Below are positions 2,893 through 15,481 of a DNA stretch of 21,326 nucleotides, in pieces. Position numbers and translations under genes: made by a program. This DNA is from Trueperaceae bacterium (GTDB lineage Bacteria; Deinococcota; Deinococci; Deinococcales; Trueperaceae), in NCBI GenBank assembly GCA_040905465.1, contig JBBDRK010000033.1, positions 20,249-41,574 of the forward strand, in the 5' to 3' direction. A model generated the notes under the pieces. That model was given only the letters and a program-made list of their open reading frames with translations. It had not been told where the DNA came from and did no database searches. Within the stretch, counting starts at the first letter, position 1. Each line of letters starts with the position of its first letter.

Positions 2893-4302
2893 ATGAACAA
2901 AGATTTCATGGATGCGTTGAACCAGCTCGCGGCCGAGCGGAACCTCGACCGGGACCAGCTGCTCACCTCGTTCGAGGAGTCGCTCGAACAGGCTTTCGAG
3001 CGCAACATCGAGCCGGGAAAACAGATCGAAGTTACGCTCGACCCGGAAACCGGCGAAATGGAAGTGCTGGTAGTCCGGCGGGTGGTCGAGGAGATCGAGG
3101 ACCCCGACAAGGAGATCAAGCTCGAGGAAGCACTGGAGCTCGATGACACCGTCGAGGTGGGGATGGAGATGGAGTTCCCCGTCGATCCCGACAAGTTCAC
3201 TCGGATCGCGGTACAGACGACCAAACAGGTGATCACCCAGAAGATCCGCGAGGCGGAGCGAGCGATCGTTTTCGAGGAGTACAAGGACCGCGCCGGCGAC
3301 GTGCTCACTGCCGTTGTCTCCCGGACCGACAACAAGCGCAACGTATTTGTCGATCTGGGCCGGGGCGAAGCTATCATGCCGCCCAAGGAGCAGATCCAGG
3401 GCGAGCGCTACATGGTCGGCATGCGGGTGAAGGTGTATGTCGCCAAGGTCGAGCTCTCGAGTCGTGGCCCGTCGATCCTGGTATCGCGGGCGGCTCCGCA
3501 ACTGCTGGAGTTCCTCATGCGTCAGGAGATCCCCGAGGTCGCGGACGGCACCGTCGAGATCAAGGCCGTCGCGCGCGAAGCGGGTCAGCGTTCGAAGGTG
3601 GCTGTCACCAGCACCAACCCCAACGTAGACCCGATCGGCGCATGTATCGGCCACCGCGGTTCACGAATCCAGTCGGTAACCGGTGAGTTGCAGCGCGAAC
3701 GCGTTGACATAATCATGTGGGACTCCGTCCCGCGCGAGTTCATCCGCAATGCGCTGTCCCCCGCCAAGGTGGGGACTATCGAGCTCGACGCCGACGCCGA
3801 GGAGGCGAAGGTGCTCGTAGCCAGCGACCAGCTTTCGCTGGCAATCGGCAAGGGTGGCCAGAACGTCCGCCTGGCGGCAAAACTTACCGGCTTCAAGATC
3901 GACCTCGTCCCCTCGGAGACGGTCAGCGATCTCGACGCGGCACTCCAGGCGGTGGCGTCACGCGGCACCGACATCGGCACCACCAGCGACACCAAGCGTG
4001 CGGCGTTCGACGCGCTGTTCAGCGCCAGCCCGGACGATGACGAAAACGCCGGAGCCGACGCTGCCGCGGCCGCGGCCGCAACCACTTCCGACGTCACGGC
4101 GGAAGAGGACGCCACGGGAAGTGCCAAGGAAGGTGCCGCGGCGAGCGCCACCGACGGCACCACCGACGATGCCACCGCGGGCTCGACGGCGGAAACGGCA
4201 GACGAGACGACCTCGGAAAATGGCGACGCAGAAACGACCACGGCGTCGACCGCCGCAGAATCCGATGAAAACCGCGAGAGCTCCCGGGAGGGCGGCTCCT
4301 GA
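2893..4302 (+). CDS. nusA: Transcription termination/antitermination factor NusA with a long acidic low-complexity C-terminal tail
   Basis: Motifs RIAVQTTKQVI, EIPEVADG, REAGQRSKVAV, DPIGACIG, QLSLAIGKGGQNVRLAAKLTG (S1/KH domains). Confidence 0.97.
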   Translation: MNKDFMDALNQLAAERNLDRDQLLTSFEESLEQAFERNIEPGKQIEVTLDPETGEMEVLVVRRVVEEIEDPDKEIKLEEALELDDTVEVGMEMEFPVDPDKFTRIAVQTTKQVITQKIREAERAIVFEEYKDRAGDVLTAVVSRTDNKRNVFVDLGRGEAIMPPKEQIQGERYMVGMRVKVYVAKVELSSRGPSILVSRAAPQLLEFLMRQEIPEVADGTVEIKAVAREAGQRSKVAVTSTNPNVDPIGACIGHRGSRIQSVTGELQRERVDIIMWDSVPREFIRNALSPAKVGTIELDADAEEAKVLVASDQLSLAIGKGGQNVRLAAKLTGFKIDLVPSETVSDLDAALQAVASRGTDIGTTSDTKRAAFDALFSASPDDDENAGADAAAAAAATTSDVTAEEDATGSAKEGAAASATDGTTDDATAGSTAETADETTSENGDAETTTASTAAESDENRESSREGGS

Positions 4303-4304
4303 TC

Positions 4305-4673
4305 GTGAGCGCCGGCCGTTCCCGTCACGTGCCCCTGCGCCGCTGCGCAGTCTGCCGCAGTTCGCTGCCGCAGTCGCAGCTGATCAGGTTCGCGCGCGGC
4401 GAGAACGGGGACTGGCGGATAGACCGTGATCGACGAGCGGGCGGTCGCGGTATGTGGGTCTGCACCGAAGCGCGCTGTCATGAGCGAAAGGCGCTCGGCC
4501 GGCCGTTTCGGGCCCAGGCGGCGGAGATGGCCGAGCAGTTGGCTTCGCTGGCCCCGGCGCAAGGCGAGAGCGCTGACGGCGGCGGTTCTGCTCGAGAACG
4601 TGCGGACCAGGAACATGCGGATCAGGAACATGTAGATAAGAAAGCGTCCCAGGACGGAGGGCTCGATGTCTGA
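4305..4673 (+). CDS. ylxR: YlxR/DUF448 family RNA-binding protein
   Basis: HVPLRRCAVCR, LIRF, GGRGMWVC; canonical position between nusA and infB; GTG start. Confidence 0.88.
   Translation: MSAGRSRHVPLRRCAVCRSSLPQSQLIRFARGENGDWRIDRDRRAGGRGMWVCTEARCHERKALGRPFRAQAAEMAEQLASLAPAQGESADGGGSARERADQEHADQEHVDKKASQDGGLDV
4596..4640 (+). repeat. In-frame 15-bp tandem repeat x3 (ERADQ-EHADQ-EHVDK) in the YlxR tail
   Basis: GAACGTGCGGACCAG / GAACATGCGGATCAG / GAACATGTAGATAAG. Confidence 0.8.
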
Positions 4674-6498
4674 AAAAGTACGTATCTATCAACTGGCCAA
4701 GGATCTAGGCCTGGAATCGAAGCAGCTGCTCGCCATCCTCGACGAGATGGGCGTGGAGTACAAGTCCCACTCGAGCACATTGGAAACCGAGACAGCCGAC
4801 ACGATACGGCAGCTAATCGCCGACCAGGGCGGCGCCCCCGAAGCGGAAGCGTCCGTCGAGGCCGCCAAAGCCGCCGAGAGCAAGGCGGCCGAGTCGGCGC
4901 GATCGACGACCAAAGGCGCCAGCGCACAAGCGGTAGCCGAGCGCCCCGCTGCGGGCACGGCCAAGAAGACCGCTCCCAGCGAGCCGGCAGCGCCCGTGCG
5001 CGCGCCGGTGGTGACCATAATGGGTCACGTCGACCACGGCAAGACAACACTGCTCGACCACATCCGCAAGACGCAGGTGGCGGAGCGGGAGGCCGGCGGC
5101 ATCACCCAGCACATCGGCGCCTACCAGGCTGAAACGCCGCAGGGACTCATTACCTTCCTCGACACACCCGGTCACGAGGCGTTCACCTCGATCCGCCAGC
5201 GCGGCGCCAGTGCTACCGACATCGCCATCATCGTCGTAGCCGCCGACGACAGCATCATGCCGCAGACCCGCGAGGCCATCGCCCACGCCAAGGCTGCGGG
5301 CGTACCGATCATCGTGGCTATCAACAAGATCGACCTTCCCCAGGCCAACCCGGACAAGGTAAAGCAGGACCTGATGCGCCTCGAGCTCGTCCCCGAAGAG
5401 TTCGGGGGCGACACGATCGTGGTGCCGATCAGTGCCATCACCGGCGCCGGCGTCGAAGATCTGCTGGAAATGATCAGCCTGGTCGCCGAGGTCGAAGACC
5501 TGCGTGCATCGGCGGATGGTCCGGCTCGCGGCGTCGTGATCGAATCGATCCTCGACAAGCGCGCCGGAGTTCTCGCCACCGTGCTCATCCAGCAGGGCAC
5601 CTTGCGGATAGCCGATTACGTGGTGTGCGGCGAAGCGTGGGCAAAGATCAGGCGGCTGACGGACTATTCCGGTAAGGCGGTCGAACACGCCGGACCGTCG
5701 GTGCCGGTCCAGATCCTGGGTTTCTCGCAGCAGCCGCAGGCAGGGCAGGCCGTCGAGTCGGTTCCCGACGAGCAGACCGCCAAGCAGCTTACCAGCGAGA
5801 TCAAGGGACGGCGCCAGGAGGAGGAGCGCGACCTCATCGGCAAGAAGAACCTGACGCTCGCCGACCTGTTCGCCAAGAGCCGCGCCACCACCATCAATCT
5901 GATCCTCCGCGCCGACACGCAAGGCTCGCTCGAGGCCATCAAGGGCGTGCTGGCAAAGGAGTCCGAGGTCACCGAGGAGGTCGACCTCAACCTGATGCTG
6001 GCGGAAGTGGGGGCTCCCACCGATTCCGACCTGCTGCTCGCCTCTACCGCGAACGCCACCGTGTTCACCTTCGGGGTAAACCCGGCTGGCTCTATTATCA
6101 AGGCGGCCGAGCGCCAGGGAATCACGCTCAAGAGCTACAAGATTATCTACGAATTGATCGAAGACGTTCAGCGGATGATCCGCGGTCAGATCGAACCGGA
6201 GTACGCGGAGCGAGTGATCGGCCACGCCGAGGTGCGCCAGGTCATCAAGGTTCCTCGCAGCGGCAACATCGCCGGTTCGTATGTCACCGACGGAGTCATC
6301 AGGCGAAACGCCAAGGCGCGGGTGTCGCGCGGCGGTCGTGAGGTGTACAAGGGCTCGATTTCCCAGATACGCCGCTTCAAGGACGACGTGCGTGAGGTCG
6401 CCCAAGGTTTCGAGTGCGGCATCAACCTGCAGAACTACGAGAACGTTCAGGAAGGCGACATCATCGAGGCGTACGAGATGGTGGAGGTGCCGGTCTGA
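4666..6498 (+). CDS. infB: Translation initiation factor IF-2 (610 aa)
   Basis: IF2_N domain (VRIYQLAKDLG), GHVDHGKTTLLD, GGITQHIGAY, DTPGHEAF, NKID, C-terminal RFKDDVREV..GFECGI. Confidence 0.98.
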   Translation: MSEKVRIYQLAKDLGLESKQLLAILDEMGVEYKSHSSTLETETADTIRQLIADQGGAPEAEASVEAAKAAESKAAESARSTTKGASAQAVAERPAAGTAKKTAPSEPAAPVRAPVVTIMGHVDHGKTTLLDHIRKTQVAEREAGGITQHIGAYQAETPQGLITFLDTPGHEAFTSIRQRGASATDIAIIVVAADDSIMPQTREAIAHAKAAGVPIIVAINKIDLPQANPDKVKQDLMRLELVPEEFGGDTIVVPISAITGAGVEDLLEMISLVAEVEDLRASADGPARGVVIESILDKRAGVLATVLIQQGTLRIADYVVCGEAWAKIRRLTDYSGKAVEHAGPSVPVQILGFSQQPQAGQAVESVPDEQTAKQLTSEIKGRRQEEERDLIGKKNLTLADLFAKSRATTINLILRADTQGSLEAIKGVLAKESEVTEEVDLNLMLAEVGAPTDSDLLLASTANATVFTFGVNPAGSIIKAAERQGITLKSYKIIYELIEDVQRMIRGQIEPEYAERVIGHAEVRQVIKVPRSGNIAGSYVTDGVIRRNAKARVSRGGREVYKGSISQIRRFKDDVREVAQGFECGINLQNYENVQEGDIIEAYEMVEVPV

Positions 6499-6833
6499 CC
6501 TCGCCTGCCCCGCGACTAAAACGGCGCCCCTTCCTGCTGGCCGCCACGCTGGTGGCCGCAACGCTGTTCCAATGGCTCTCCGGCGGCCTGTCGTCGGATT
6601 CGGGAGCACTCGGCATGGGCGTGCCGGTACCCCTGAGCTGGGAAGCGGCGGCGCCGGGTCTCGGCTCGGGTAACGCGGGCGGCTGGCGGTCGGACCCCGG
6701 CATCGAGCGGGTAGATTCGCTGCTCTCGGGTGGCGGCTTCCCCCTGAAGTCGCCCTCCCTGCCGCTGGCGCCCTCGATAGATCTGCGCACCCTGTTCCTG
6801 CTGTGGGGCCGGCTCCAGTTGGAAGGCGGCTGA
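6495..6833 (+). CDS. Small exported or membrane-targeted protein upstream of secDF (about 112 aa); candidate secretion-monitor arrest peptide
   Basis: Open frame fills the infB-secDF gap; SD GGAGGT (6483-6488) 6 nt before a CTG (6495) that overlaps the infB TGA; basic n-region (RLKRR), hydrophobic segment (PFLLAATLVAATLFQWL), Gly/Ser/Pro-rich linker, C-terminus LFLLWGRLQLEGG. Confidence 0.65.
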   Translation: MTSPAPRLKRRPFLLAATLVAATLFQWLSGGLSSDSGALGMGVPVPLSWEAAAPGLGSGNAGGWRSDPGIERVDSLLSGGGFPLKSPSLPLAPSIDLRTLFLLWGRLQLEGG

Positions 6834-6888
6834 GGACACCTCTATCCGCTGACCTTCTAACCTCGAGTGTGAACTATCAGGAGAACAG

Positions 6889-9072
6889 ATGAACCGACGC
6901 AATTTCACGGCAGTGGCAGTTCTCGTCGCCATCTTGCTATCAGTGCTCTACCTCTGGCAGCCCTGGAACCAGGGCGAGTCCAGCCTGAAGCTGGGTCTCG
7001 ACCTTCAGGGCGGCCTGCGCGTTGTTCTGCAGGCGGACCAATCGAACCCCGAGCGCGAGGACATGGACGCGGCCCGCAGCGTAATCGAGAACCGCGTGAA
7101 CGAGTTCGGCGTGGCGGAGCCGATCATCCAGACGAGCGGCGACAACCGAATAGTTGTGGAACTGCCCGGCCTCTCCGCCGATCAGCAGGATCGTGCCCTC
7201 GATCTGATCGGACAACAGGCGATCCTCGAGTTCCGGCTGGTCCGGCAGCAAGCAGGCGACAGGTCTACCTCGCTGCTGACGAGCGCCGACCTGGAAGAGA
7301 CGCGTTTCACCGGTGAGATAATCCGCTCGGCTCGCGCCGACTTCAGCCCCCCTGGCGCCGGAGTCATAGGTCCTATCGTGCTGTTCGAGGTCAAGCGCGA
7401 GAACGCTTCCGAGTTCGGTGACTTCACCGCCTCCAACGTTGGCCGCCGGATGGCGGTCGTACTCGACGGAAACATCATCACGGCTCCGACGCTGCAGAGC
7501 CGAATCTCCGATTCCGGGCAGATCACGGGCATAGAGGACCTCGAGGAGGCTACCGACATCTCCCTGGTGCTGCGCAGCGGCGCCCTGCCGATCAACCTCC
7601 ACGTCGAGGAGATTCGGCAGATAGGGCCGACGCTCGGACAAGACTCCATCGAAGCGGGCGTTACCGCGGGCGGAATCGGAGCCGCCGTTATCGTCGCGGC
7701 AATCCTCCTTTTCTATGGCCCTATGTTCGGCGGCGTGCTGACGGTCGGCCTGTCCCTGGTACTACTGTTCGTCTTCGGCATACTCGCGGGACTGGGGGCC
7801 GCCCTCACGCTGCCGGGCCTGGCCGGCCTGGTCCTGACCATCGGGGCGGCGGTCGACGGTAACGTGATCTCCTTCGAGCGGATCAAGGAGGAGCTGCGTA
7901 GTGGCAAGAGCCTGCGGCTGGCGATGAAGAGCGGGTTCGGGAATTCGCTGTCGGCGATCATCGACGCCAACGTCACGACCCTGCTGGCCGCCGCGGCGCT
8001 CTACCAGTACACGACCGGTCCGGTACGCGGTTTCGCCACGATCCTCGCGATCGGCATCGTTTGCGCCGTGTTCGTGAACATCGTTGTGGTCCCGTTCCTG
8101 CTCGACGTGCTCACCCTGCGCTACAAGCGCTCCCGCATGCCGCGCGGCTTCTACCTGCAGGGACTCAGGTTCGTACGGCGCGCGCCGTTCGTCCTGACCA
8201 TCTCTGCTCTGCTGGCGGTGGCCGCGATCGTAGGTGTATCCGTCAGGGGACTGAGCCTGTCGACCGACTTCACCGGCGGCACGACCATCCTCTACCGGGC
8301 GCCTGACGGAACCTCTGTCGCCAACTTCCGCTCCGCGCTGGAGGATCTCGAGATAGAAGGCTTGTCCGCCTCGGGCGCCAACATCGTAGAGGTTTTCGAC
8401 AACACCATCGAAGGCAACCTCATCTCGGTCCGAGTCGGCGTGACAGATGACGGTGGCGCCAGCGAGTCACTTGCCTCGGATCTGGGCGCGGCGATCGGCG
8501 CCGACGTCCTGTCTGCCGACTACGTGGGCCCTGCGGTGGGTGCCGACCTCAGGCAAGGCGCGATCTACGCGGTTCTGGTTGCACTCGCGCTGATCCTGGT
8601 CTACGTCACCTGGCGCTTCTGGCCCAACTGGGTAGTGGCGGTGGGCGCGGTTCTCGCCGTGATCCACGACGTCGCGCTGGTCCTTGGGGTGCTTCAGCTC
8701 GCTGGGGCGGAGTTCAGCATCCCGGTCCTGGCGGCCCTGCTGTTCGTAGTGGGTTACTCGCTGAACGACTCGATCATCATCGCCGACAGGATTCGCGAGA
8801 ACCTGCGGCGGGTGCGGGACAGTTCCTACGAAGACATCGTCGACCTTTCGGTGAACCAGACCATGTCGCGTACGGTAATGACCTCAGGCACGACGTTGCT
8901 GCCGGTACTGGCGCTGTTGTTCTTCGGCGGCTCGGTGCTGCGTGACTTCAGCCTTACGCTGCTGATCGGCATAGGCGTGGGCACCTACTCGAGCATCTTC
9001 ATCCTGGCGGCCATGGTCGTGTGGTTCCGGCAGCGGCGCCGGCAGGTCAGGGAGGTCCGCCGCTCGGCCTGA
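6889..9072 (+). CDS. secDF: Fused protein translocase subunit SecDF
   Basis: LKLGLDLQGG, IENRVNEFGVAEP, LRSGALP, IGPTLGQDSI, AVDGNV, DFTGG, GYSLNDSIII.DRIREN; SD AGGAG at 6879-6883. Confidence 0.97.
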   Translation: MNRRNFTAVAVLVAILLSVLYLWQPWNQGESSLKLGLDLQGGLRVVLQADQSNPEREDMDAARSVIENRVNEFGVAEPIIQTSGDNRIVVELPGLSADQQDRALDLIGQQAILEFRLVRQQAGDRSTSLLTSADLEETRFTGEIIRSARADFSPPGAGVIGPIVLFEVKRENASEFGDFTASNVGRRMAVVLDGNIITAPTLQSRISDSGQITGIEDLEEATDISLVLRSGALPINLHVEEIRQIGPTLGQDSIEAGVTAGGIGAAVIVAAILLFYGPMFGGVLTVGLSLVLLFVFGILAGLGAALTLPGLAGLVLTIGAAVDGNVISFERIKEELRSGKSLRLAMKSGFGNSLSAIIDANVTTLLAAAALYQYTTGPVRGFATILAIGIVCAVFVNIVVVPFLLDVLTLRYKRSRMPRGFYLQGLRFVRRAPFVLTISALLAVAAIVGVSVRGLSLSTDFTGGTTILYRAPDGTSVANFRSALEDLEIEGLSASGANIVEVFDNTIEGNLISVRVGVTDDGGASESLASDLGAAIGADVLSADYVGPAVGADLRQGAIYAVLVALALILVYVTWRFWPNWVVAVGAVLAVIHDVALVLGVLQLAGAEFSIPVLAALLFVVGYSLNDSIIIADRIRENLRRVRDSSYEDIVDLSVNQTMSRTVMTSGTTLLPVLALLFFGGSVLRDFSLTLLIGIGVGTYSSIFILAAMVVWFRQRRRQVREVRRSA

Positions 9073-9081
9073 GCGGGCCCA

Positions 9082-9480
9082 TCAGTCGGATGTTCCGGCA
9101 CTACCCGGATCCGGAACATCCACGCTCAGCTGCCGAACCACTTCGTCGCCGCGTGACAAGACGGCGCGCCAGCGCCCAGGCAGCAGCTCCACGTCTTCGG
9201 GCAGAGTGACCCTGAACCTCTGCCCTGCATCGGCCGGCTCGATCCAGCGGCTCTCCGACGCCACTTCGCGGTTTGCAGGAGAGAACCACTGGATTGCCAG
9301 CCAACCTTCGGAGGGCACCGTCCGAATCGCCAGGTCCAGGCTGGGACGGCCACCCTTGACCTCTGCGAAGCCCTCCAGCTCGAAGCGCTCGCGCGCCTCG
9401 AGCGGGGTGGGGACCGGCGGCAGATAGAGCGGTTGGCAGCCCAGCGGCAGGAGCAGCAGAACGAGCGTCAATCGCCGCAT
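9082..9480 (-). CDS. Putative lipoprotein (about 132 aa), function unknown
   Basis: MRRLTLVLLLLPLG|C lipobox-like signal; ATG overlaps the rsmE stop (TGATG). Confidence 0.75.
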   Translation of the reverse strand: MRRLTLVLLLLPLGCQPLYLPPVPTPLEARERFELEGFAEVKGGRPSLDLAIRTVPSEGWLAIQWFSPANREVASESRWIEPADAGQRFRVTLPEDVELLPGRWRAVLSRGDEVVRQLSVDVPDPGSAGTSD

Positions 9481-10277
9481 CACAAGGCCTCGGGAACCAG
9501 CAGCGCCGCCAACATTGCCACCGGCGCTGTCTCGGCGCGCAACACGCGGGCTCCGAGCCGAACGGCTCGTGCACCACGCGATTCGAGGTCGGACACCTCT
9601 TCGGCCGTGAAGCCGCCTTCCGGGCCGGTTACGACGGTAATCTTCTCGGCAGCGGACGAGCCGGAGTCGTGACCGGGCGGCCGGGTCGCGCCCACTTCGT
9701 TCGTTCGCTGCAGCCGAGTTTCCGGCGCGTCTCGCCGCTGTAGACCGCCCCCGAGCACCGTGAGCAGCGTCGAACCGGCTCCGGGCTGCGCGACCAGCGC
9801 CAGTCCGTCGACCTCCAGGTCCGGCAGCGCAACGGCCTCGGCAACCAGTGGAACCACCGACCGGCCGCTCTGCTTTGCCGCCTCGCGCGCGACGCGTCGC
9901 AACCGCTCAAGCTTGTTCGCCGACAGCTCGGGAACGTCGCGGCGCCTGCTGAGCAGCGGCCGGAACGAGACTGCACCCAGCTCGGTGCATTGACGCACCA
10001 CATCGGCGAGCTTGTCCCCCTTCAACAACGAAATAGCAACGGTTACGGCGATGCCGGCCTCGAGCCGGCCGCTGTTCGGTTCCCGCAGTTCGATCACTAC
10101 CCTGCCGGTTTCGACTGTCAGCACCGCACCGTCCGCCTCCTTGCCGCACCCGTCGAAGGCGCGCACCGGTACCCCCGGGACCACCCGCAGCACCTGAGCG
10201 AGGTGTTGAGCCTCGCTGCCGATGACGACGTTGGCGCCTCGGTTCAACTCCGGGAGGTAGATCCTGTGAATACGCAC
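9480..10277 (-). CDS. rsmE: 16S rRNA m3U1498 methyltransferase RsmE
   Basis: HLAQVLRV, KGDK..VVRQCTELG, EAAKQSGR, GPEGGFT.EE, LGARVLRAETA; likely GTG start at 10277 (VRIHRIY). Confidence 0.95.
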   Translation of the reverse strand: MRIHRIYLPELNRGANVVIGSEAQHLAQVLRVVPGVPVRAFDGCGKEADGAVLTVETGRVVIELREPNSGRLEAGIAVTVAISLLKGDKLADVVRQCTELGAVSFRPLLSRRRDVPELSANKLERLRRVAREAAKQSGRSVVPLVAEAVALPDLEVDGLALVAQPGAGSTLLTVLGGGLQRRDAPETRLQRTNEVGATRPPGHDSGSSAAEKITVVTGPEGGFTAEEVSDLESRGARAVRLGARVLRAETAPVAMLAALLVPEAL

Positions 10278-10287
10278 TGCCGCCCCG

Positions 10288-11091
10288 TCAACCCGAGTCG
10301 CGCTTGCGCACCGCCGCAAGCAGCCGCCACTCGCCGTCGGCCTGCCAGCCGGCCGACTCGAACGAGTCTGCCAGCGCCTCTTCCACGAGACTGGCGCGTT
10401 CGGCCAGGATGCCGGTCACGAGCAGACTGCCGCCCGGCCGCAATGCGGCGGCATAAGCGGAAGCCAGCTCGACGTGCAGCTCGGCGTGGAGATTGGCGAC
10501 GATAAGGTCGGCTCGATCGTCGGCGTTCAGGCCGCGGCGCTCGAACACGGCCCGTGACCGGTTGAGCTCGGCGTTCTCGCGGGCGATGGGGATCGTTTGA
10601 TCATCGATGTCGACGCCGAGACTCCGGCCGGCGCCCAGCAGGTCGGCGGCGATCGCGAGTATTCCGGAACCCGCTCCTACGTCGAGCACTCTCTTCCCCA
10701 TCAGTTGCTCCGCGGTCAACGCCTCCAGCGCCAGCCGAGTAGTTTCGTGGTGACCGGTACCGAAGGCCATGCCCGGGTCGATCCACAGTGGCTTCTGGCC
10801 GGCGCTCAGCACGGCCGTGCGGTGAGTGGGGGCGATCACCAAGGAACCGACAGTCAGGCAGTCGAGCTCCCGGTAGTAACGTTCCAGGTAGTCATGCTCC
10901 AACGTCTCGTGCCAGACGCCCTCCAGCGGCAGAGCGACGACGGAGTCGAAGTAGCCGACGATCTCCTCTCCCTCCTCTGCCACGCCGATGCAGCCGTGTT
11001 CCCAGAGCTCCTGCGCCTCGGGACCCTCCAGGCCCAACTCGGTCCGCAAGCGGAAGGCGAAGCCGGATCCCTTGCTGCCTGACTTGCTCAC
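10288..11091 (-). CDS. prmA: Ribosomal protein L11 methyltransferase PrmA
   Basis: IDPGMAFGTGHHETT, VLDVGAGSGILAIAA, DLIVAN; usual neighbour of rsmE; GTG start overlaps the upstream stop. Confidence 0.93.
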   Translation of the reverse strand: MSKSGSKGSGFAFRLRTELGLEGPEAQELWEHGCIGVAEEGEEIVGYFDSVVALPLEGVWHETLEHDYLERYYRELDCLTVGSLVIAPTHRTAVLSAGQKPLWIDPGMAFGTGHHETTRLALEALTAEQLMGKRVLDVGAGSGILAIAADLLGAGRSLGVDIDDQTIPIARENAELNRSRAVFERRGLNADDRADLIVANLHAELHVELASAYAAALRPGGSLLVTGILAERASLVEEALADSFESAGWQADGEWRLLAAVRKRDSG

Positions 11092-12791
11092 GCCTCGACG
11101 CGCGGTTCACGCACCCGCTCGTCACGGGTGATGACCTCGAACCCGAGCCTCTGTCCTTCCCGTAAGTAGAACTCGATATCGGCACTGTGCGTGCTCGGCC
11201 CCAGCGATGCCCGCTCGAACGCCCTGGTTGCGGTCATTATCATGGTTTCCGCCATGCAGGCCGGAACCCGGCCGTCGCCGAACTGCATGTCGATACGAGA
11301 CCTCATCTCACCCGGCGGACGCACTACGCCTCCGGGGATCACATGCACGCCCGGCACCTCGTGAACGCTCTCGTCGACATCCGCCGGTCGCCCGAGGTCG
11401 TATATCCAGGCACCAGGTTTCACATGCTCCGGGAAGATCACGGGATCCGGATCCGAGGTTGCGCTGAAGATAAGGTCCGCCGCTCCCACTGCGTTGATGT
11501 CGACCGATGAGACTATCTTCGTTTCCGGAAACTTTCGCTGCAGGCTCGCCGCGCTGCGCTCGAGCCGTTCGGCGTCGCGGCCAATGAGGATCAGTTCGCC
11601 CACCTCCCCTGCGATCATCCGAGCAACTCCGAAAGCGACCACCCCGTTGGCGCCCACGACGGCGGCTGTCGAGGCGCGTAACGAGCCGCCCTCTCGCTCG
11701 AATCGCTCGAGCAGCCCCGGCACGGCGGCCCGGACGGTGGCGGCGGTATAAGCGCCGCCGTTGGTGATCGCCAACTCCGGCACCGCCTCCTTTACCTCCA
11801 GGCCCTTGTTGCCGACGGTCGACCAGAAGGCTCCCAGCCCGAACGCCTCGGCACCGAGGTCGCGTGCGAAGCGTGCACCCTGGATGGCCAGCTTGGTTGC
11901 CAGCTCGGGATAGGCCCGGATCTGCTCGGGAAGCATGCCGCCCACGACCAGCATCACGCGCAGTTCACGCCCGTCGGAGAGCCGAATACCGGTTACCTCG
12001 CCGAGGAGTTGAGGACGCATGTAGGGCATGATCCGCAGGAGCAGTCTTTCGTCGATGAAGCGGTGCTTTACCAGACGCCCGACCCAGCCGTGCGAACGCG
12101 TCTGCCACAAGTCGCCCAGCTTCATCGGGTGGACCATGAACGCTGCCCGCACCACGTTCGGGTCGCTGCCTCTCACTGGCGGCGGCTCACCGAGCCGCAC
12201 TTCGGTTCCGTCGAGGATCCGGGCAAGGCTCGACTTGTGGCGCCACAGGGCCACCAGCAGCAGCCCGGTAGCCGCAAGTACGTAGGGCGGTCCGAGTCCC
12301 AAGACGGCGACCACCAGGGCCAGCGCCACCAGCGCGACCAGGGTGGCGAGCGCAACGTAGGCGGTGCTCGCCAGGAAGGCGGCGAACACGGCGACCGGCA
12401 GAAGCCCACCGAGAAACGGCATCGGCCCGAACACCACAAGGCCCGCCAGGGCGCCCAGCAGCACGCCGTTGCCACGCCCGCGCGGAATCTGCTCGCGCCA
12501 GCCGGGAAACGGCGGGTGCAAGTGACCCGCGAACGCGCCCAGGGCGCCCCAGGGGCTGCCGAGGGTGAGGCCGACGGCAGCAAACCCCTTGATCACATCG
12601 AGCACGAGCGAGGCCAGGGCAGCAGTCGGACCCAGCAGCCGCAACATGTTCTCCACACCCAGGTTGTGCGCCGTGAATGCGTTGGGGTCCTTGCCCGTAA
12701 GCAGCCGAACCGCCAGGCTTCCCAAGGGAAGCGCGCCGATCAGCCAACCGGCCGCCAGCGCCAGAACGGCGAACGTGAACGAGGTCGACAT
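11088..12791 (-). CDS. Fusion: N-terminal PlsY-like glycerol-3-phosphate acyltransferase plus C-terminal NAD(P)-binding acyl-ACP-reductase-like domain (567 aa)
   Basis: About 200 hydrophobic N-terminal residues with PlsY-like motifs (GWLIGALPLG, LDVIKG, GHLHP, RGRGNG, RHKSSLARI.GTE); C-terminal part with AFMVHP, GLGAFWSTVG, TNGGAYTA, Rossmann-like VVGANG, DLGRP, ACMAETM. Confidence 0.75.
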   Translation of the reverse strand: MSTSFTFAVLALAAGWLIGALPLGSLAVRLLTGKDPNAFTAHNLGVENMLRLLGPTAALASLVLDVIKGFAAVGLTLGSPWGALGAFAGHLHPPFPGWREQIPRGRGNGVLLGALAGLVVFGPMPFLGGLLPVAVFAAFLASTAYVALATLVALVALALVVAVLGLGPPYVLAATGLLLVALWRHKSSLARILDGTEVRLGEPPPVRGSDPNVVRAAFMVHPMKLGDLWQTRSHGWVGRLVKHRFIDERLLLRIMPYMRPQLLGEVTGIRLSDGRELRVMLVVGGMLPEQIRAYPELATKLAIQGARFARDLGAEAFGLGAFWSTVGNKGLEVKEAVPELAITNGGAYTAATVRAAVPGLLERFEREGGSLRASTAAVVGANGVVAFGVARMIAGEVGELILIGRDAERLERSAASLQRKFPETKIVSSVDINAVGAADLIFSATSDPDPVIFPEHVKPGAWIYDLGRPADVDESVHEVPGVHVIPGGVVRPPGEMRSRIDMQFGDGRVPACMAETMIMTATRAFERASLGPSTHSADIEFYLREGQRLGFEVITRDERVREPRVEA

Positions 12792-12898: not shown

Positions 12899-15481
12899 GT
12901 GGAAAGTCGAATGCCCCCCCAGAACCTCGAGGCCGAGCAGAGTGTGCTCGGCAGCGTGCTGCTAGACAACGACGTATACGCCCGGATCGAAGGAACGCTG
13001 CGCGCGGAACAGTTCTACAAGGAGGGTCACAGGAAGATCTTCCGCTGCATGGAGCGGCTCTTTCGGCGCGGCGATCCGACCGATCTCGTTACGCTGACCG
13101 AGGAGTTGCGCCAGAGCGGCGACCTCGAGAGCGTAGGGAGCGTTCCCTATCTCATCGGGCTGGCCGACAGCGTTCCGACCGCCGCCTACGCCGAGAACTA
13201 CGCCCGAATAGTCGCCGAGAAGGCAGTGTTGCGCGACCTGATCGCCACCAGCGGCACCATCATGCAGACTGCCTTCGACCAGTCGATGCCGATCGAGCAG
13301 ATCCTCGACAAGGCCGAGGCTTCGATCTTCGACCTCGCCGGCAGTCGCCGCAGCCAGGACTTCCAGGGCATGGGCGAGCTCGTCAACGATACCTTCGCCT
13401 ACATAAACGAGCTCTTCGCCAATCCCGATCCCGTTTCGGGGTTGCGTACCGGGTTCAAGGAGCTCGATCAGCTCACCGCCGGGCTGCAGCCGTCGAGCCT
13501 CAATGTGCTGGCGGCTCGGCCTTCCATGGGAAAGACGGCGCTGGGCCTGTCGATCGCCCAGAACGTGGCCCTGCGAGAAGGCAAGCCGGTGGGTCTGTTC
13601 TCGCTGGAGATGTCCAGCCTGCAGTTAGTGACCCGGATGCTTTGCTCCGAGGCGCGAGTCGACATGAGCCGGGTGCGCAATGGGCAGCTGTCCGACCGAG
13701 ATTTCCAGCGGCTCGCCGATACCGCCGGGCGAATGTCGGAGGCACAGATCTTCATCGACGACAACGCCGACATGACGGTCATGGAGCTGCGTAGCCGGGC
13801 ACGCCGGCTGGTTTCGGAGCACGGCGCGGGTTTGATCATGATCGACTACCTGCAACTCATGTCGGGCGGCAACAGCGAGAACCGCCAGCAGGAGATCTCC
13901 AACATCTCCCGAGGTCTCAAGGCGCTTGCGCGCGAGTTGGATGTCCCGGTGTTGGTGCTCTCGCAGCTCTCTCGTGCGGTGGAGGCCCGGCCGAACAAGC
14001 GGCCGATGCTGTCCGACCTCCGTGAGTGCGTGACGGGCGACACGTTGGTGGTACTGAGCGACGGCCGTCGAGTGCCGATAAGCGAGCTGGAAGGCACGAC
14101 GCCGGAAGTCGTGGCTCTCGGTGTTGACGGCAAGCTGACCGTCGCGCGCAGCGACAAGGTCTGGAAGGTCGGTACCCGCGAGGTGTTCGAGCTGAAGCTG
14201 GCCAGCGGGCGGCGGATTCGGGCGACCGGGAAGCACCGCCTATTAACGGCCGACGGCTGGCGCACGCTTAACGAGCTTGCGGTGGGCGACAGGTTGGCTA
14301 TAGCTCGTCTACTGCCGCAACCGCGGAGTGCCGAGGCTTGGCCCGATTCCAGCGTGGCACTGCTGGGACAACTTATAGGTGACGGCAGCTATCTGAAGGG
14401 TCAGCCGTTGCGTTATTCAACCGCATCCGAAGAAAACAGCCGGGTCGTTGAGGAAGGTGCTCTTGCGCTCGGATCGACCGTTAGGCGCTACAAAGGACGC
14501 AAGCACTGGCATCAACTCTTGATCGGAAACAACGGAAATCGTTGGCACGCCTGTGGCGTAGGTGGCTGGCTGAAGGAGTTGGGTATCTTCGGTCAACGTT
14601 CCCATCAAAAGCGCGTTCCAGAGGCTGCGTTCGAGCTGGCGAGCGCTCAGGTAGCCCTCCTGCTCAGGCACATGTGGGCCGCAGACGGTTGTATCCATAC
14701 TAGAAAGGACGGGCAGCGAGGCAGTCAGACGGTCTACTACGGTACCAACAGCGAAGGCCTCGCCTACGATGTGGCCGCACTGCTTCTCCGGTTGGGGATA
14801 GTCGCCCGAATAAAGTCGGTCCAAAAAGAAGGTTACCGGCCAGGATTCCAGGTATTCGTTTCCGGTAGCAGTGATCAGCGACGTTTTCTGGATAATGTCG
14901 GTACCTTTGGTCCACGGGAAAAGCCGGGACTCGCCCTGAGTACAAGACTGATTGCCATCTCTGCCAACCCCAATGTCGACACGGTGCCTCGAGAGATATT
15001 CAGTCATGTGTCGCTGCTGATGGCGCGGCAAGGACTGAGCCGACAGGACGTTGCCGCGTTGCGGGGCCTGAGGCGCTCTAACCTCTATATGGAGTATGCC
15101 CCTACTAGAAGTGTGATTCAAAGCTACGCGACCGCGTTGCAGGACGACCGGTTGCTGCAACTCGCAGCGAATGACCTGTTCTGGGACAGTGTTGTCGGGA
15201 TTAGTCCGGCTGGTCCGGCGGTAGTGTATGATATCACCGTACCGGGACCATCTAGTTGGCTCGCCGACAGCATTGTAAGTCATAATAGTGGAGCTATTGA
15301 GCAGGACGCAGATTTGGTTATGTTCATATACCGCGATGAGTATTACGACTCGAACTCCGAGAAACAGGGCATCGCCGAGGTGATCATCGGCAAGCAGCGC
15401 AACGGCCCCGTCGGCACGGTCGACCTGCAGTTCCACAACGCCCACGTGCGCTTCAACGATCTGGCCCGCACGAGCGGCTGA
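12899..15481 (+). CDS. dnaB: Replicative DNA helicase DnaB (860-aa precursor; 440 aa after intein excision)
   Basis: PPQNLEAEQSVLG, Walker A AARPSMGKT, FSLEM, IDYLQLM, LSQLSR, SDLRE/SGAIEQDAD, KQRNGPVG. Confidence 0.98.
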   Translation: MESRMPPQNLEAEQSVLGSVLLDNDVYARIEGTLRAEQFYKEGHRKIFRCMERLFRRGDPTDLVTLTEELRQSGDLESVGSVPYLIGLADSVPTAAYAENYARIVAEKAVLRDLIATSGTIMQTAFDQSMPIEQILDKAEASIFDLAGSRRSQDFQGMGELVNDTFAYINELFANPDPVSGLRTGFKELDQLTAGLQPSSLNVLAARPSMGKTALGLSIAQNVALREGKPVGLFSLEMSSLQLVTRMLCSEARVDMSRVRNGQLSDRDFQRLADTAGRMSEAQIFIDDNADMTVMELRSRARRLVSEHGAGLIMIDYLQLMSGGNSENRQQEISNISRGLKALARELDVPVLVLSQLSRAVEARPNKRPMLSDLRECVTGDTLVVLSDGRRVPISELEGTTPEVVALGVDGKLTVARSDKVWKVGTREVFELKLASGRRIRATGKHRLLTADGWRTLNELAVGDRLAIARLLPQPRSAEAWPDSSVALLGQLIGDGSYLKGQPLRYSTASEENSRVVEEGALALGSTVRRYKGRKHWHQLLIGNNGNRWHACGVGGWLKELGIFGQRSHQKRVPEAAFELASAQVALLLRHMWAADGCIHTRKDGQRGSQTVYYGTNSEGLAYDVAALLLRLGIVARIKSVQKEGYRPGFQVFVSGSSDQRRFLDNVGTFGPREKPGLALSTRLIAISANPNVDTVPREIFSHVSLLMARQGLSRQDVAALRGLRRSNLYMEYAPTRSVIQSYATALQDDRLLQLAANDLFWDSVVGISPAGPAVVYDITVPGPSSWLADSIVSHNSGAIEQDADLVMFIYRDEYYDSNSEKQGIAEVIIGKQRNGPVGTVDLQFHNAHVRFNDLARTSG
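14027..15286 (+). mobile_element. Intein with LAGLIDADG homing endonuclease domain (420 aa) in DnaB
   Basis: Starts CVTGDT after SDLRE; block B ATGKHRLLT; endonuclease motifs LLGQLIGDG and LLRHMWAADG; ends VYDITV..IVSHN followed by Ser(+1). Confidence 0.96.

Follow-up and report, generated by a model that had tools for sequence, protein, structure and literature searches.

Monitoring substrates are a known way in which bacteria sense the activity of the protein-export machine, and to our knowledge only a limited set of their sequence classes is known. VemP of Vibrio (encoded upstream of secD2F2), SecM (upstream of secA) and MifM (upstream of yidC2) share one concept: export of the peptide itself releases its arrest, and the translocation gene downstream is controlled, through a stem-loop that masks the downstream Shine-Dalgarno (SD) sequence and is opened by the stalled ribosome. 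In ApdA, ApdP and the RQH family the ribosome stalls during elongation, the P site then holding residue three of the motif; in the secDF upstream open reading frames (uORFs) uDF_NAP-stop as well as uDF_DGMK-stop it stalls at their own stop codons, the stop codon being needed for the arrest and held in the A site (all according to the available part of Fujiwara et al. 2024, Nat Commun 15:2711). Here we analyzed a stretch of 21,326 nucleotides (hereafter the window; contig JBBDRK010000033.1, positions 20,249 to 41,574 of the forward strand, assembly GCA_040905465.1) from a Trueperaceae bacterium of the Deinococcota, in which a uORF of 112 codons stands between infB and secDF. Comparison across the phylum makes us lean, with a little better than even confidence, towards reading this uORF as a ribosome arrest peptide that monitors Sec and belongs to a new sequence class, for which we use the provisional name 'uDF_[E/D]GG-stop'. 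The uORF and its immediate surroundings comprise the following features (coordinates of the window).

6483-6487, + strand: GGAGG, SD-like, within the 3' end of infB and 7 nt 5' of CTG 6495 (putative role)
6496-6498, + strand: infB stop codon TGA, sharing bases with the first uORF codon (GTCTGA)
6495-6833, + strand: uORF, 112 codons plus TGA, recognized from its frame, codon-position GC and relatives
6531-6578, + strand: hydrophobic signal or anchor segment FLLAATLVAATLFQWL, residues 13-28, with RLKRR before it (hydropathy; AlphaFold2 helix 11-33, pLDDT about 90)
6612-6644, + strand: post-signal block GMGVPVPLSWE (family alignment columns 209-234)
6792-6830, + strand: C-terminal block LFLLWGRLQLEGG, residues 100-112, the proposed arrest sequence (family conservation)
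6831-6833, + strand: uORF stop codon TGA directly after Gly-Gly, the proposed A-site codon (family comparison)
6834-6888, + strand: uORF-secDF spacer of 55 nt (sequence)
6879-6883, + strand: AGGAG, SD sequence of secDF, inside the uORF-secDF spacer
6889-9072, + strand: secDF (fused, 727 aa), the presumed regulated gene (PF02355, PF22599, PF21760, PF07549)

An earlier note, made from the letters of this DNA, had described an ORF of about 112 aa ending 55 nt before secDF, and its frame and translation are as given there (LTSPAPRLKRRPFLLAATLVAATLFQWL...DLRTLFLLWGRLQLEGG-stop, 112 residues, with TGA at 6831-6833 and the secDF ATG at 6889). We gathered 119 secDF loci, one per Deinococcota genome, by a search with the SecDF N-terminus; 30 and 9 of them came from the first two collections, and 80 were hand-picked later among 150 matches listed (53 further matches were unlisted), with all listed genera included and the upstream content not known beforehand. 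The motif was defined on the first 39 loci, 26 of which carry it. Upstream of secDF, a same-strand ORF ending in [D/E]-G-G-stop is present at 91 of the 119 loci, among them 65 of the 80 that were fetched after the motif had been defined; the same ending occurs in 2 of the 904 other stop-to-stop ORFs of at least 40 aa in these loci. A further 14 loci have a uORF that is a close variant of this form. By family label, 34/48 loci are positive in f1, 24/30 in f2, 8/9 in f3, 25/28 in f4 and 0/4 in f5, and identical proteins in public records are named from Truepera (among f1), Deinococcus (f2), Oceanithermus (f3) and Thermus, Meiothermus and Allomeiothermus (f4), every one of these named proteins being labeled "hypothetical protein". 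The distance from the uORF stop to secDF has a median of 87 nt (range 50-341, n=79). The comparison across Deinococcota that the earlier note had proposed came out in its favor: the uORF conserves its C-terminus right up to the stop, varies in the middle and stays close to secDF. The GRLQLEGG-type ends that the note mentions on hypothetical proteins of the Thermus group were verified among the loci of relatives and in public records.

The 28 loci without the canonical ending are heterogeneous. Nine have infB abutting secDF (gap -1 to 175 nt), with no room for an ORF; eight show near-variant endings (...GRLQL, ...QQWRL, ...WQLEG at two loci, ...LEGC, ...QLGGG, ...QLEGA and a doubtful ...RFGGG); four, all of f5, end in ...RW[N/L]E-stop, 87-191 nt before the secDF ATG; two have RLQLEGC or RLQLGGC at an internal position, with 27 or 23 codons still to come; two lie at contig edges, and three are second, secDF-like loci of one genus. 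In the four f5 loci (L052-L055), SecDF itself carries an N-terminal extension of about 100 residues, and the upstream ORF keeps the layout of signal and spacer without the Gly-Gly end. In one f4 genus Gly-Gly has been replaced by Gly-Cys, and the stop is lost in two species, which gain 23-27 extra codons (L106 and L107, compared with L108); this is a natural experiment on whether the stop matters. In four Trueperaceae-type genomes (L033, L036, L064 and L066) no uORF separates infB from secDF and the two genes overlap by 1-4 nt; in two of these genomes the frame of secDF can be followed backwards through infB for about 1340 aa without a stop. Loss of the uORF has occurred repeatedly within this one family.

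Conservation is concentrated at the C-terminus, where the consensus is [LYF]-L-x-[LYF]-G-[RK]-[LR]-Q-[LT]-[ED]-G-G. When the 91 members are anchored at their C-termini, information content is high only over the last 13-15 residues and stays at about 0.3 bits (background) from position -16 upstream, and the mean column identity of the whole 91-row alignment is 13%. Within the block, position -4 is L/T in 84/91 members, -5 is Q in 65/91, -6 is L/R in 83/91, -7 is R/K in 81/91, -8 is G in 48/91, and -9 and -12 are L/Y/F in 79/91 and 84/91, respectively. Positions -1 and -2 show all four Gly codons and position -3 both codons of Asp and both of Glu, while Leu and Arg are written with many of their codons elsewhere; because synonymous codons vary across the block, selection acts on the peptide and not on an RNA motif. 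The GGAGG formed by the codons of E-G-G was considered as an SD-like pause signal and rejected, as the D-G-G ending (43/91 members) does not contain it. In the genome of the window, [DE]GG ends 20 of the 31,683 six-frame ORFs of at least 60 aa, and the fuller motif gives one strict match, the uORF itself, so that it was not found upstream of any other gene of this genome.

Conservation of the block as amino acids despite synonymous changes also bears on the notion that the uORF does no more than couple infB and secDF translationally or keep them apart, whatever peptide it encodes. The start of the uORF does overlap the infB stop or lie within 5 nt of it in 21 of the 73 infB-linked loci (related genera show TGATG overlaps of the infB stop and the uORF start), and some genera have infB directly abutting secDF and no uORF; however, the signal segment and the spacer length are conserved too, and Deinococcus keeps the uORF with secDF though infB is not adjacent, which together leave this explanation very improbable. 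The Deinococcus arrangement, an ORF without adjacent infB, is also the reason for which an extension of IF-2 by frameshifting was rejected.

A profile built from 91 sequences and compared with 1.84 billion representative proteins (E <=0.001) retrieved 103 relatives of 87-152 aa; every match extends to the last position of both profile and protein, and [DE]GG ends 97 of the 103. Every match that bears a taxon name belongs to the Deinococcota, and among ten divergent matches that were looked up, the single one with a taxon name is "Deinococcota bacterium". The family thus looks restricted to this phylum, in line with the earlier note, which had called it Deinococcota-specific. Among 41 related genomes, exactly one profile match was found in each of 26, directly upstream of secDF in 25 of them. 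The nine genomes without a uORF at the locus contained no convincing copy elsewhere (9/9; the best hit, E 0.009, is partial and inside a long ORF), and the positive control of this genome-wide search gave a single match at the expected place (E 8.8e-12). The uORF is a single-copy element with a strict cis linkage to secDF, and as a unit it is dispensable.

Neither Pfam nor NCBIfam has a family that matches the window peptide or covers the uORF family, and the ESM Atlas yielded no match at >=0.8 and no informative structure match. A word-based homologue search with the 91-row alignment scored none of 8000 word-sharing candidates, probably because of low-complexity words; the exhaustive profile search found relatives that it had missed. 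Literature searches gave nothing relevant on a secDF arrest peptide of Deinococcota or Thermus, and neither the two screening papers nor a 2025 follow-up (PMC10987492, PMC7897499 and PMC12992588) contain the strings 'Deinococ' or 'Thermus' in their main texts.

The uORF is a real gene. Its GC contents at codon positions 1/2/3 (0.708/0.602/0.823) can be set beside those of infB (0.663/0.429/0.827) and secDF (0.661/0.44/0.832), and the frame looks coding because its third-position GC is like that of these two genes (in a genome of 65% GC); the antisense frame that shares its third positions shows the wrong order of position-1 and position-2 GC. A genome search with the window peptide as single query found two congeners only, at 42% and 37% identity, both with the ORF between infB and secDF and in the same frame relation to infB; the wider family came to light through gene position alone. 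Despite this low identity all three keep the frame open from the infB stop onwards. That the frame is open by mere chance in GC-rich DNA has next to no probability left. High-GC genomes are rich in long spurious ORFs (e.g., a 598-aa antisense ORF over infB), and the window copy lacks a canonical start, but the third-position GC of 0.82, the phylum-wide occurrence with the frame kept, and the occurrence of the strict motif once among all genome ORFs speak against chance, and for the family as a whole the comparative data have already refuted it.

The start of the window copy is less regular. Codon 6495 is CTG and not ATG, GTG or TTG, which corrects the earlier note. The only canonical starts in the frame are GTG 6414 (inside infB), GTG 6552 and ATG 6615, the latter two falling within or after the hydrophobic segment, and the signal segment of this copy is translated only with a non-canonical start, for which we propose CTG 6495. 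A canonical start before the hydrophobic segment is absent in 2/91 members, the window copy and one congener; one congener has ATG two codons after the CTG, and the other has ATC where related genera have ATG.

The layout sketched in the earlier note, a signal-like N-terminus, a low-complexity linker and a distinct C-terminus, is present throughout the family. An N-proximal hydrophobic segment was found by hydropathy in 91/91 members (median 16 aa), and the n-region carries a net positive charge in 75/89. The spacer from this segment to the C-terminus is hypervariable and rich in Pro, Ala, Leu, Gly and Arg, and yet its length is fixed within narrow bounds (median 84 aa, interquartile range 80-87; 75-99 aa in 89/91 members). 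Shortly after the signal lies a second, weaker block, the moderately conserved motif G-x-x-A-P-x-P-x-L-x-E then Arg (G in 76/91, P in 51 and E in 53), which is common to Truepera-like genomes, Deinococcus and Thermus (alignment columns 209-250). AlphaFold2, run with the 91-sequence alignment, predicted only an N-terminal helix (11-33) and a C-terminal helix (97-110), with pLDDT 52-59 between them and pTM 0.28, i.e., no folded domain. Two protein-level explanations were rejected: a lipoprotein, as no conserved Cys follows the hydrophobic segment, nor does the lipobox fit, and a C-terminal Gly-Gly of the ubiquitin/ThiS/Pup kind, by the export signal, the lack of a predicted fold and the linkage to secDF.

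All four in-silico criteria for Sec/YidC monitoring substrates given in the available part of Fujiwara et al. 2024 describe this family. It is a small uORF near secDF (in the window 112 codons, 55 nt before the gene, with no Pfam or NCBIfam family and with relatives named "hypothetical protein"), it has an N-terminal secretion signal or transmembrane segment (91/91), it is conserved among homologs at the C-terminus (last 13-15 residues), and more than 30 aa separate the signal from the C-terminus in 90/91 members, the exception being a contig-edge locus with a doubtful start.

From these properties we infer stalling, the step at which it occurs, its release by force, and the direction and mechanism of an effect on secDF, as follows. 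Translation of the uORF would come straight after that of infB, whose stop in many relatives overlaps or adjoins the uORF ATG; the N-terminal signal or anchor would carry the nascent chain to the Sec translocon. When the ribosome arrives at the end of the ORF, the last 13 or so residues, then in the upper exit tunnel, would delay or prevent the last step; this is most likely the release of the peptide, the P site being occupied by Gly-tRNA and the A site by the stop codon. Active translocation would pull on the spacer of about 84 residues and relieve the block; with poor export the ribosome would stay at the end of the uORF, and secDF expression would rise.

Termination would be a more likely stalling step than elongation. 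The stop behaves as part of the motif, since it directly follows GG in 91/119 loci and 97/103 database relatives and profile matches reach the protein C-terminus, and Gly before the stop is the slowest context for release; both points favor a stall at termination. The latter comes from a eukaryotic assay, in which Gly before the stop gave the slowest peptide release and whose results are correlated with those for bacteria in Pierson et al. 2016 (r 0.98 and 0.94; both in the available part of PMC10802582). In a rather improbable variant, which we count within our overall confidence in an arrest peptide, the ribosome would stall during elongation in the RAPP-like manner, the P site holding Gly(-2) and the A site Gly-tRNA(-1), or it would stall earlier, at the R-L-Q-L core; the stop would then only happen to be nearby. 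In favor of this variant, D-G-G fits positions 2-4 of the RQH-family pattern (R/Q/H)-(A/G/D)-(P/G/S)-(P/G) in the available part of Fujiwara et al. 2024, the motif is internal in two loci, the stop is shifted by 1-3 codons in several, and all three stop codons are used. The first position of that pattern, however, is L or T here (Q at -4 in 1/91), the loose pattern as a whole occurs in 1/91 members and not in the window peptide, and strict RAPP/RAPG/RGPP/RGPG/RAGP motifs are absent from the last 20 residues of all 91, which extends to the family the absence of RAPP, RAGP or RGPP that the earlier note had reported for the window peptide and that our motif check reproduced. Pro occurs within the last 10 aa of a single member (1/91). 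The position of GG-stop at the very end of the uORFs and database relatives also stands against an elongation stall.

In its most specific form, the proposal would be a phylum-wide, force-sensitive peptide that blocks termination through a proline-free ...G-[RK]-L-Q-L-[ED]-G-G-stop, with all three stop codons and hence both release factors, and with the spacer of about 84 residues as a ruler from the translocon to the peptidyl-transferase center. We regard this combination as tentative and give it somewhat less than an even chance. If true, the stalled complex of the Thermus thermophilus or Deinococcus peptide could be studied on the structurally best characterized ribosomes. The choice of stop codon differs between groups: f3 and f4 (Oceanithermus; Thermus/Meiothermus) use TAG or TAA only (33/33), and f1 and f2 mostly TGA (41/58).

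Several findings weigh against the arrest-peptide reading. In the window copy the stretch from the infB stop to the hydrophobic segment contains no ATG, GTG or TTG, and a public gene call starts the protein at Met41, i.e., at ATG 6615. The position of the stop varies, as seen in the near-variant endings, in ...RW[N/L]E-stop of f5 and in the two loci with an internal motif, and the use of all three stop codons across the family means that no single release factor is implicated. The spacer length is far narrower than that reported for Sec-type monitoring substrates (available part of Fujiwara et al. 2024), and the post-signal block has no role in the arrest model. With a ribosome modeled at the uORF stop, the mean accessibility of the secDF SD and start changed from 0.455 to 0.466, with a rise of more than 0.15 in 4/79 loci (0.494 and 13/79 loci when the ribosome was placed 30 nt upstream), and RNAalifold on two groups found no conserved SD-masking helix. 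To these can be added the apparent lack of YajC in the phylum, which is taken up below.

Because accessibility hardly rises and no conserved helix was found, the link from stalling to secDF expression is without structural support. In the window, the minimum free energy fold pairs the secDF SD region with 6792-6803 (uORF codons 100-103; z = -2.1), a similar pairing is present in one congener, and it is absent in the third congener. The folds were computed at 37 C, and many members are thermophiles. The scan of 6300-7000 found no promoter-like or terminator-like sites, and an Rfam scan of the same interval gave two sub-threshold chance matches and nothing else. In RNA-library contigs the Thermus infB-uORF-secDF stretch was recovered from four runs of four studies (X1, X2, X7 and X13): one contig covers all 2101 nt in X1, X2 and X7, and in X13 one contig spans the secDF 5' end, the uORF and part of infB; such contigs cannot show a single transcript, RNA ends or ribosome position and were not used as evidence. 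A predicted complex of SecDF with the uORF product scored 0.00, with controls not folded, and speaks neither for nor against binding. As to the earlier note, its interpretation as a secDF arrest peptide is supported in part, by the comparative layout and conservation, and the SD-masking model of coupling has no consistent support.

The most substantial competitor, though unlikely, is a small exported or membrane-anchored protein without any stalling. Its disordered linker of about 84 residues would hold a short helix or peptide at the C-terminus, which would work in trans on SecDF or on some other partner in the envelope; the protein would be an accessory subunit, not homologous to YajC, in the gene place that yajC takes in yajC-secD-secF operons. 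YajC (PF02699) scored above the Pfam cut-off in 0/41 Deinococcota genomes, compared with 7/14 known genomes in the control, and a weak Thermus match proved to be the C-terminus of an unrelated 255-aa ORF. The size of the uORF product (about 90-150 aa), its single N-terminal hydrophobic segment and its position before secDF are yajC-like, the C-terminal helix is predicted by AlphaFold2, and the internal-motif and shifted-stop variants are easier to accept for a protein motif. A narrow linker length and a conserved post-signal block suit a tethered ligand; the narrow spacer length also fits a tether of defined length.

Against such a subunit stand the positive charges before the hydrophobic segment, which would imply an N-in/C-out topology or a cleaved signal, the topology of YajC being the opposite of N-in/C-out. 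The PF02699 profile matched neither the window peptide nor any of the 91 members, and the family shows no Pfam or NCBIfam similarity to anything else. Conservation limited to the final 13 or so residues flush with the stop, with 13% column identity in the body, would be unusual for a subunit. Because the uORF was never found away from secDF and was lost outright in 9/9 genomes with infB abutting secDF, a cis-regulatory element fits better than a protein acting in trans. An arrest peptide is the reading that we prefer.

If the family stalls ribosomes, it adds to the known classes a proline-free motif adjoining the stop codon, and it provides a native arrest peptide for Thermus thermophilus, whose ribosome and SecDF are structural model systems, so that the stalled state and the force-release step would be directly testable in that species. 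Stalling would also account for the conserved "hypothetical protein" that Thermus, Meiothermus, Oceanithermus, Truepera and Deinococcus encode between infB and secDF, and the unusually constant length of the spacer would be informative about the transmission of pulling force. Should there be no stalling, the uORF still encodes an uncharacterized, SecDF-linked small envelope protein in a phylum seemingly without YajC.

Upstream of the uORF the window contains a run of genes, assigned from Pfam and the ORF list.

2291-2794, + strand: rimP
2893-4302, + strand: nusA
4305-4673, + strand: ylxR
4666-6498, + strand: infB (IF-2, 610 aa; Pfam GTP_EFTU, IF-2, IF2_N)

Three ORFs further downstream deserve mention. 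A 133-aa ORF at 9082-9483 (- strand) has no Pfam family and overlaps convergently with the end of secDF; its N-terminus (...LLLLPLGC...) looks like that of a lipoprotein. In a 567-aa ORF at 11088-12791 (- strand), a PlsY-type glycerol-3-phosphate acyltransferase domain (residues 15-192) is joined to a shikimate/quinate dehydrogenase domain (367-485); this ORF is either a fusion or two genes read through. The DnaB helicase gene at 12899-15481 (+ strand) contains an intein, which includes a homing-endonuclease domain of the LAGLIDADG type (PF14890 and PF14528 inside PF03796/PF00772).

Among known systems, YajC resembles the uORF product as a small single-span protein encoded directly before secD/secF, and differs from it in homology, in the topology implied by the charges and in having a conserved domain, whereas the uORF product conserves its C-terminal tail only. 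VemP, SecM and MifM likewise have their arrest motif within a few codons of the stop; they show no sequence similarity to the uORF (no Pfam match), and no conserved structure like their SD-masking stem-loop was found for it. TnaC and PepNL (PMC11890864) are termination-stage arrest peptides, but short cytosolic leaders without an export signal. The block proposed here would resemble theirs in acting on peptide release while the A site holds a stop codon. ApdA, ApdP and the RQH family have in common with the uORF the position upstream of secDF, the layout of signal, spacer and C-terminal motif, and a hypervariable body that does not cluster by overall sequence (available part of Fujiwara et al. 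2024); in contrast to them, the uORF family has no RAPP-like motif (strict 0/91), and its Arg stands at -7 and not at -4. The closest counterparts are uDF_DGMK-stop and uDF_NAP-stop, from which the uORF differs in ending in [ED]-G-G without a C-terminal Pro, in its longer block (13 residues), in its fixed spacer length, and in occurring in Deinococcota, those two being found in Clostridia and Bacteroidota in the available part of the same paper. All three are small secDF uORFs with an N-terminal localization signal, a spacer of more than 30 aa and a C-terminal motif followed by the stop codon (same source), and the DGMK of uDF_DGMK-stop and the DGG of the uORF share Asp-Gly.

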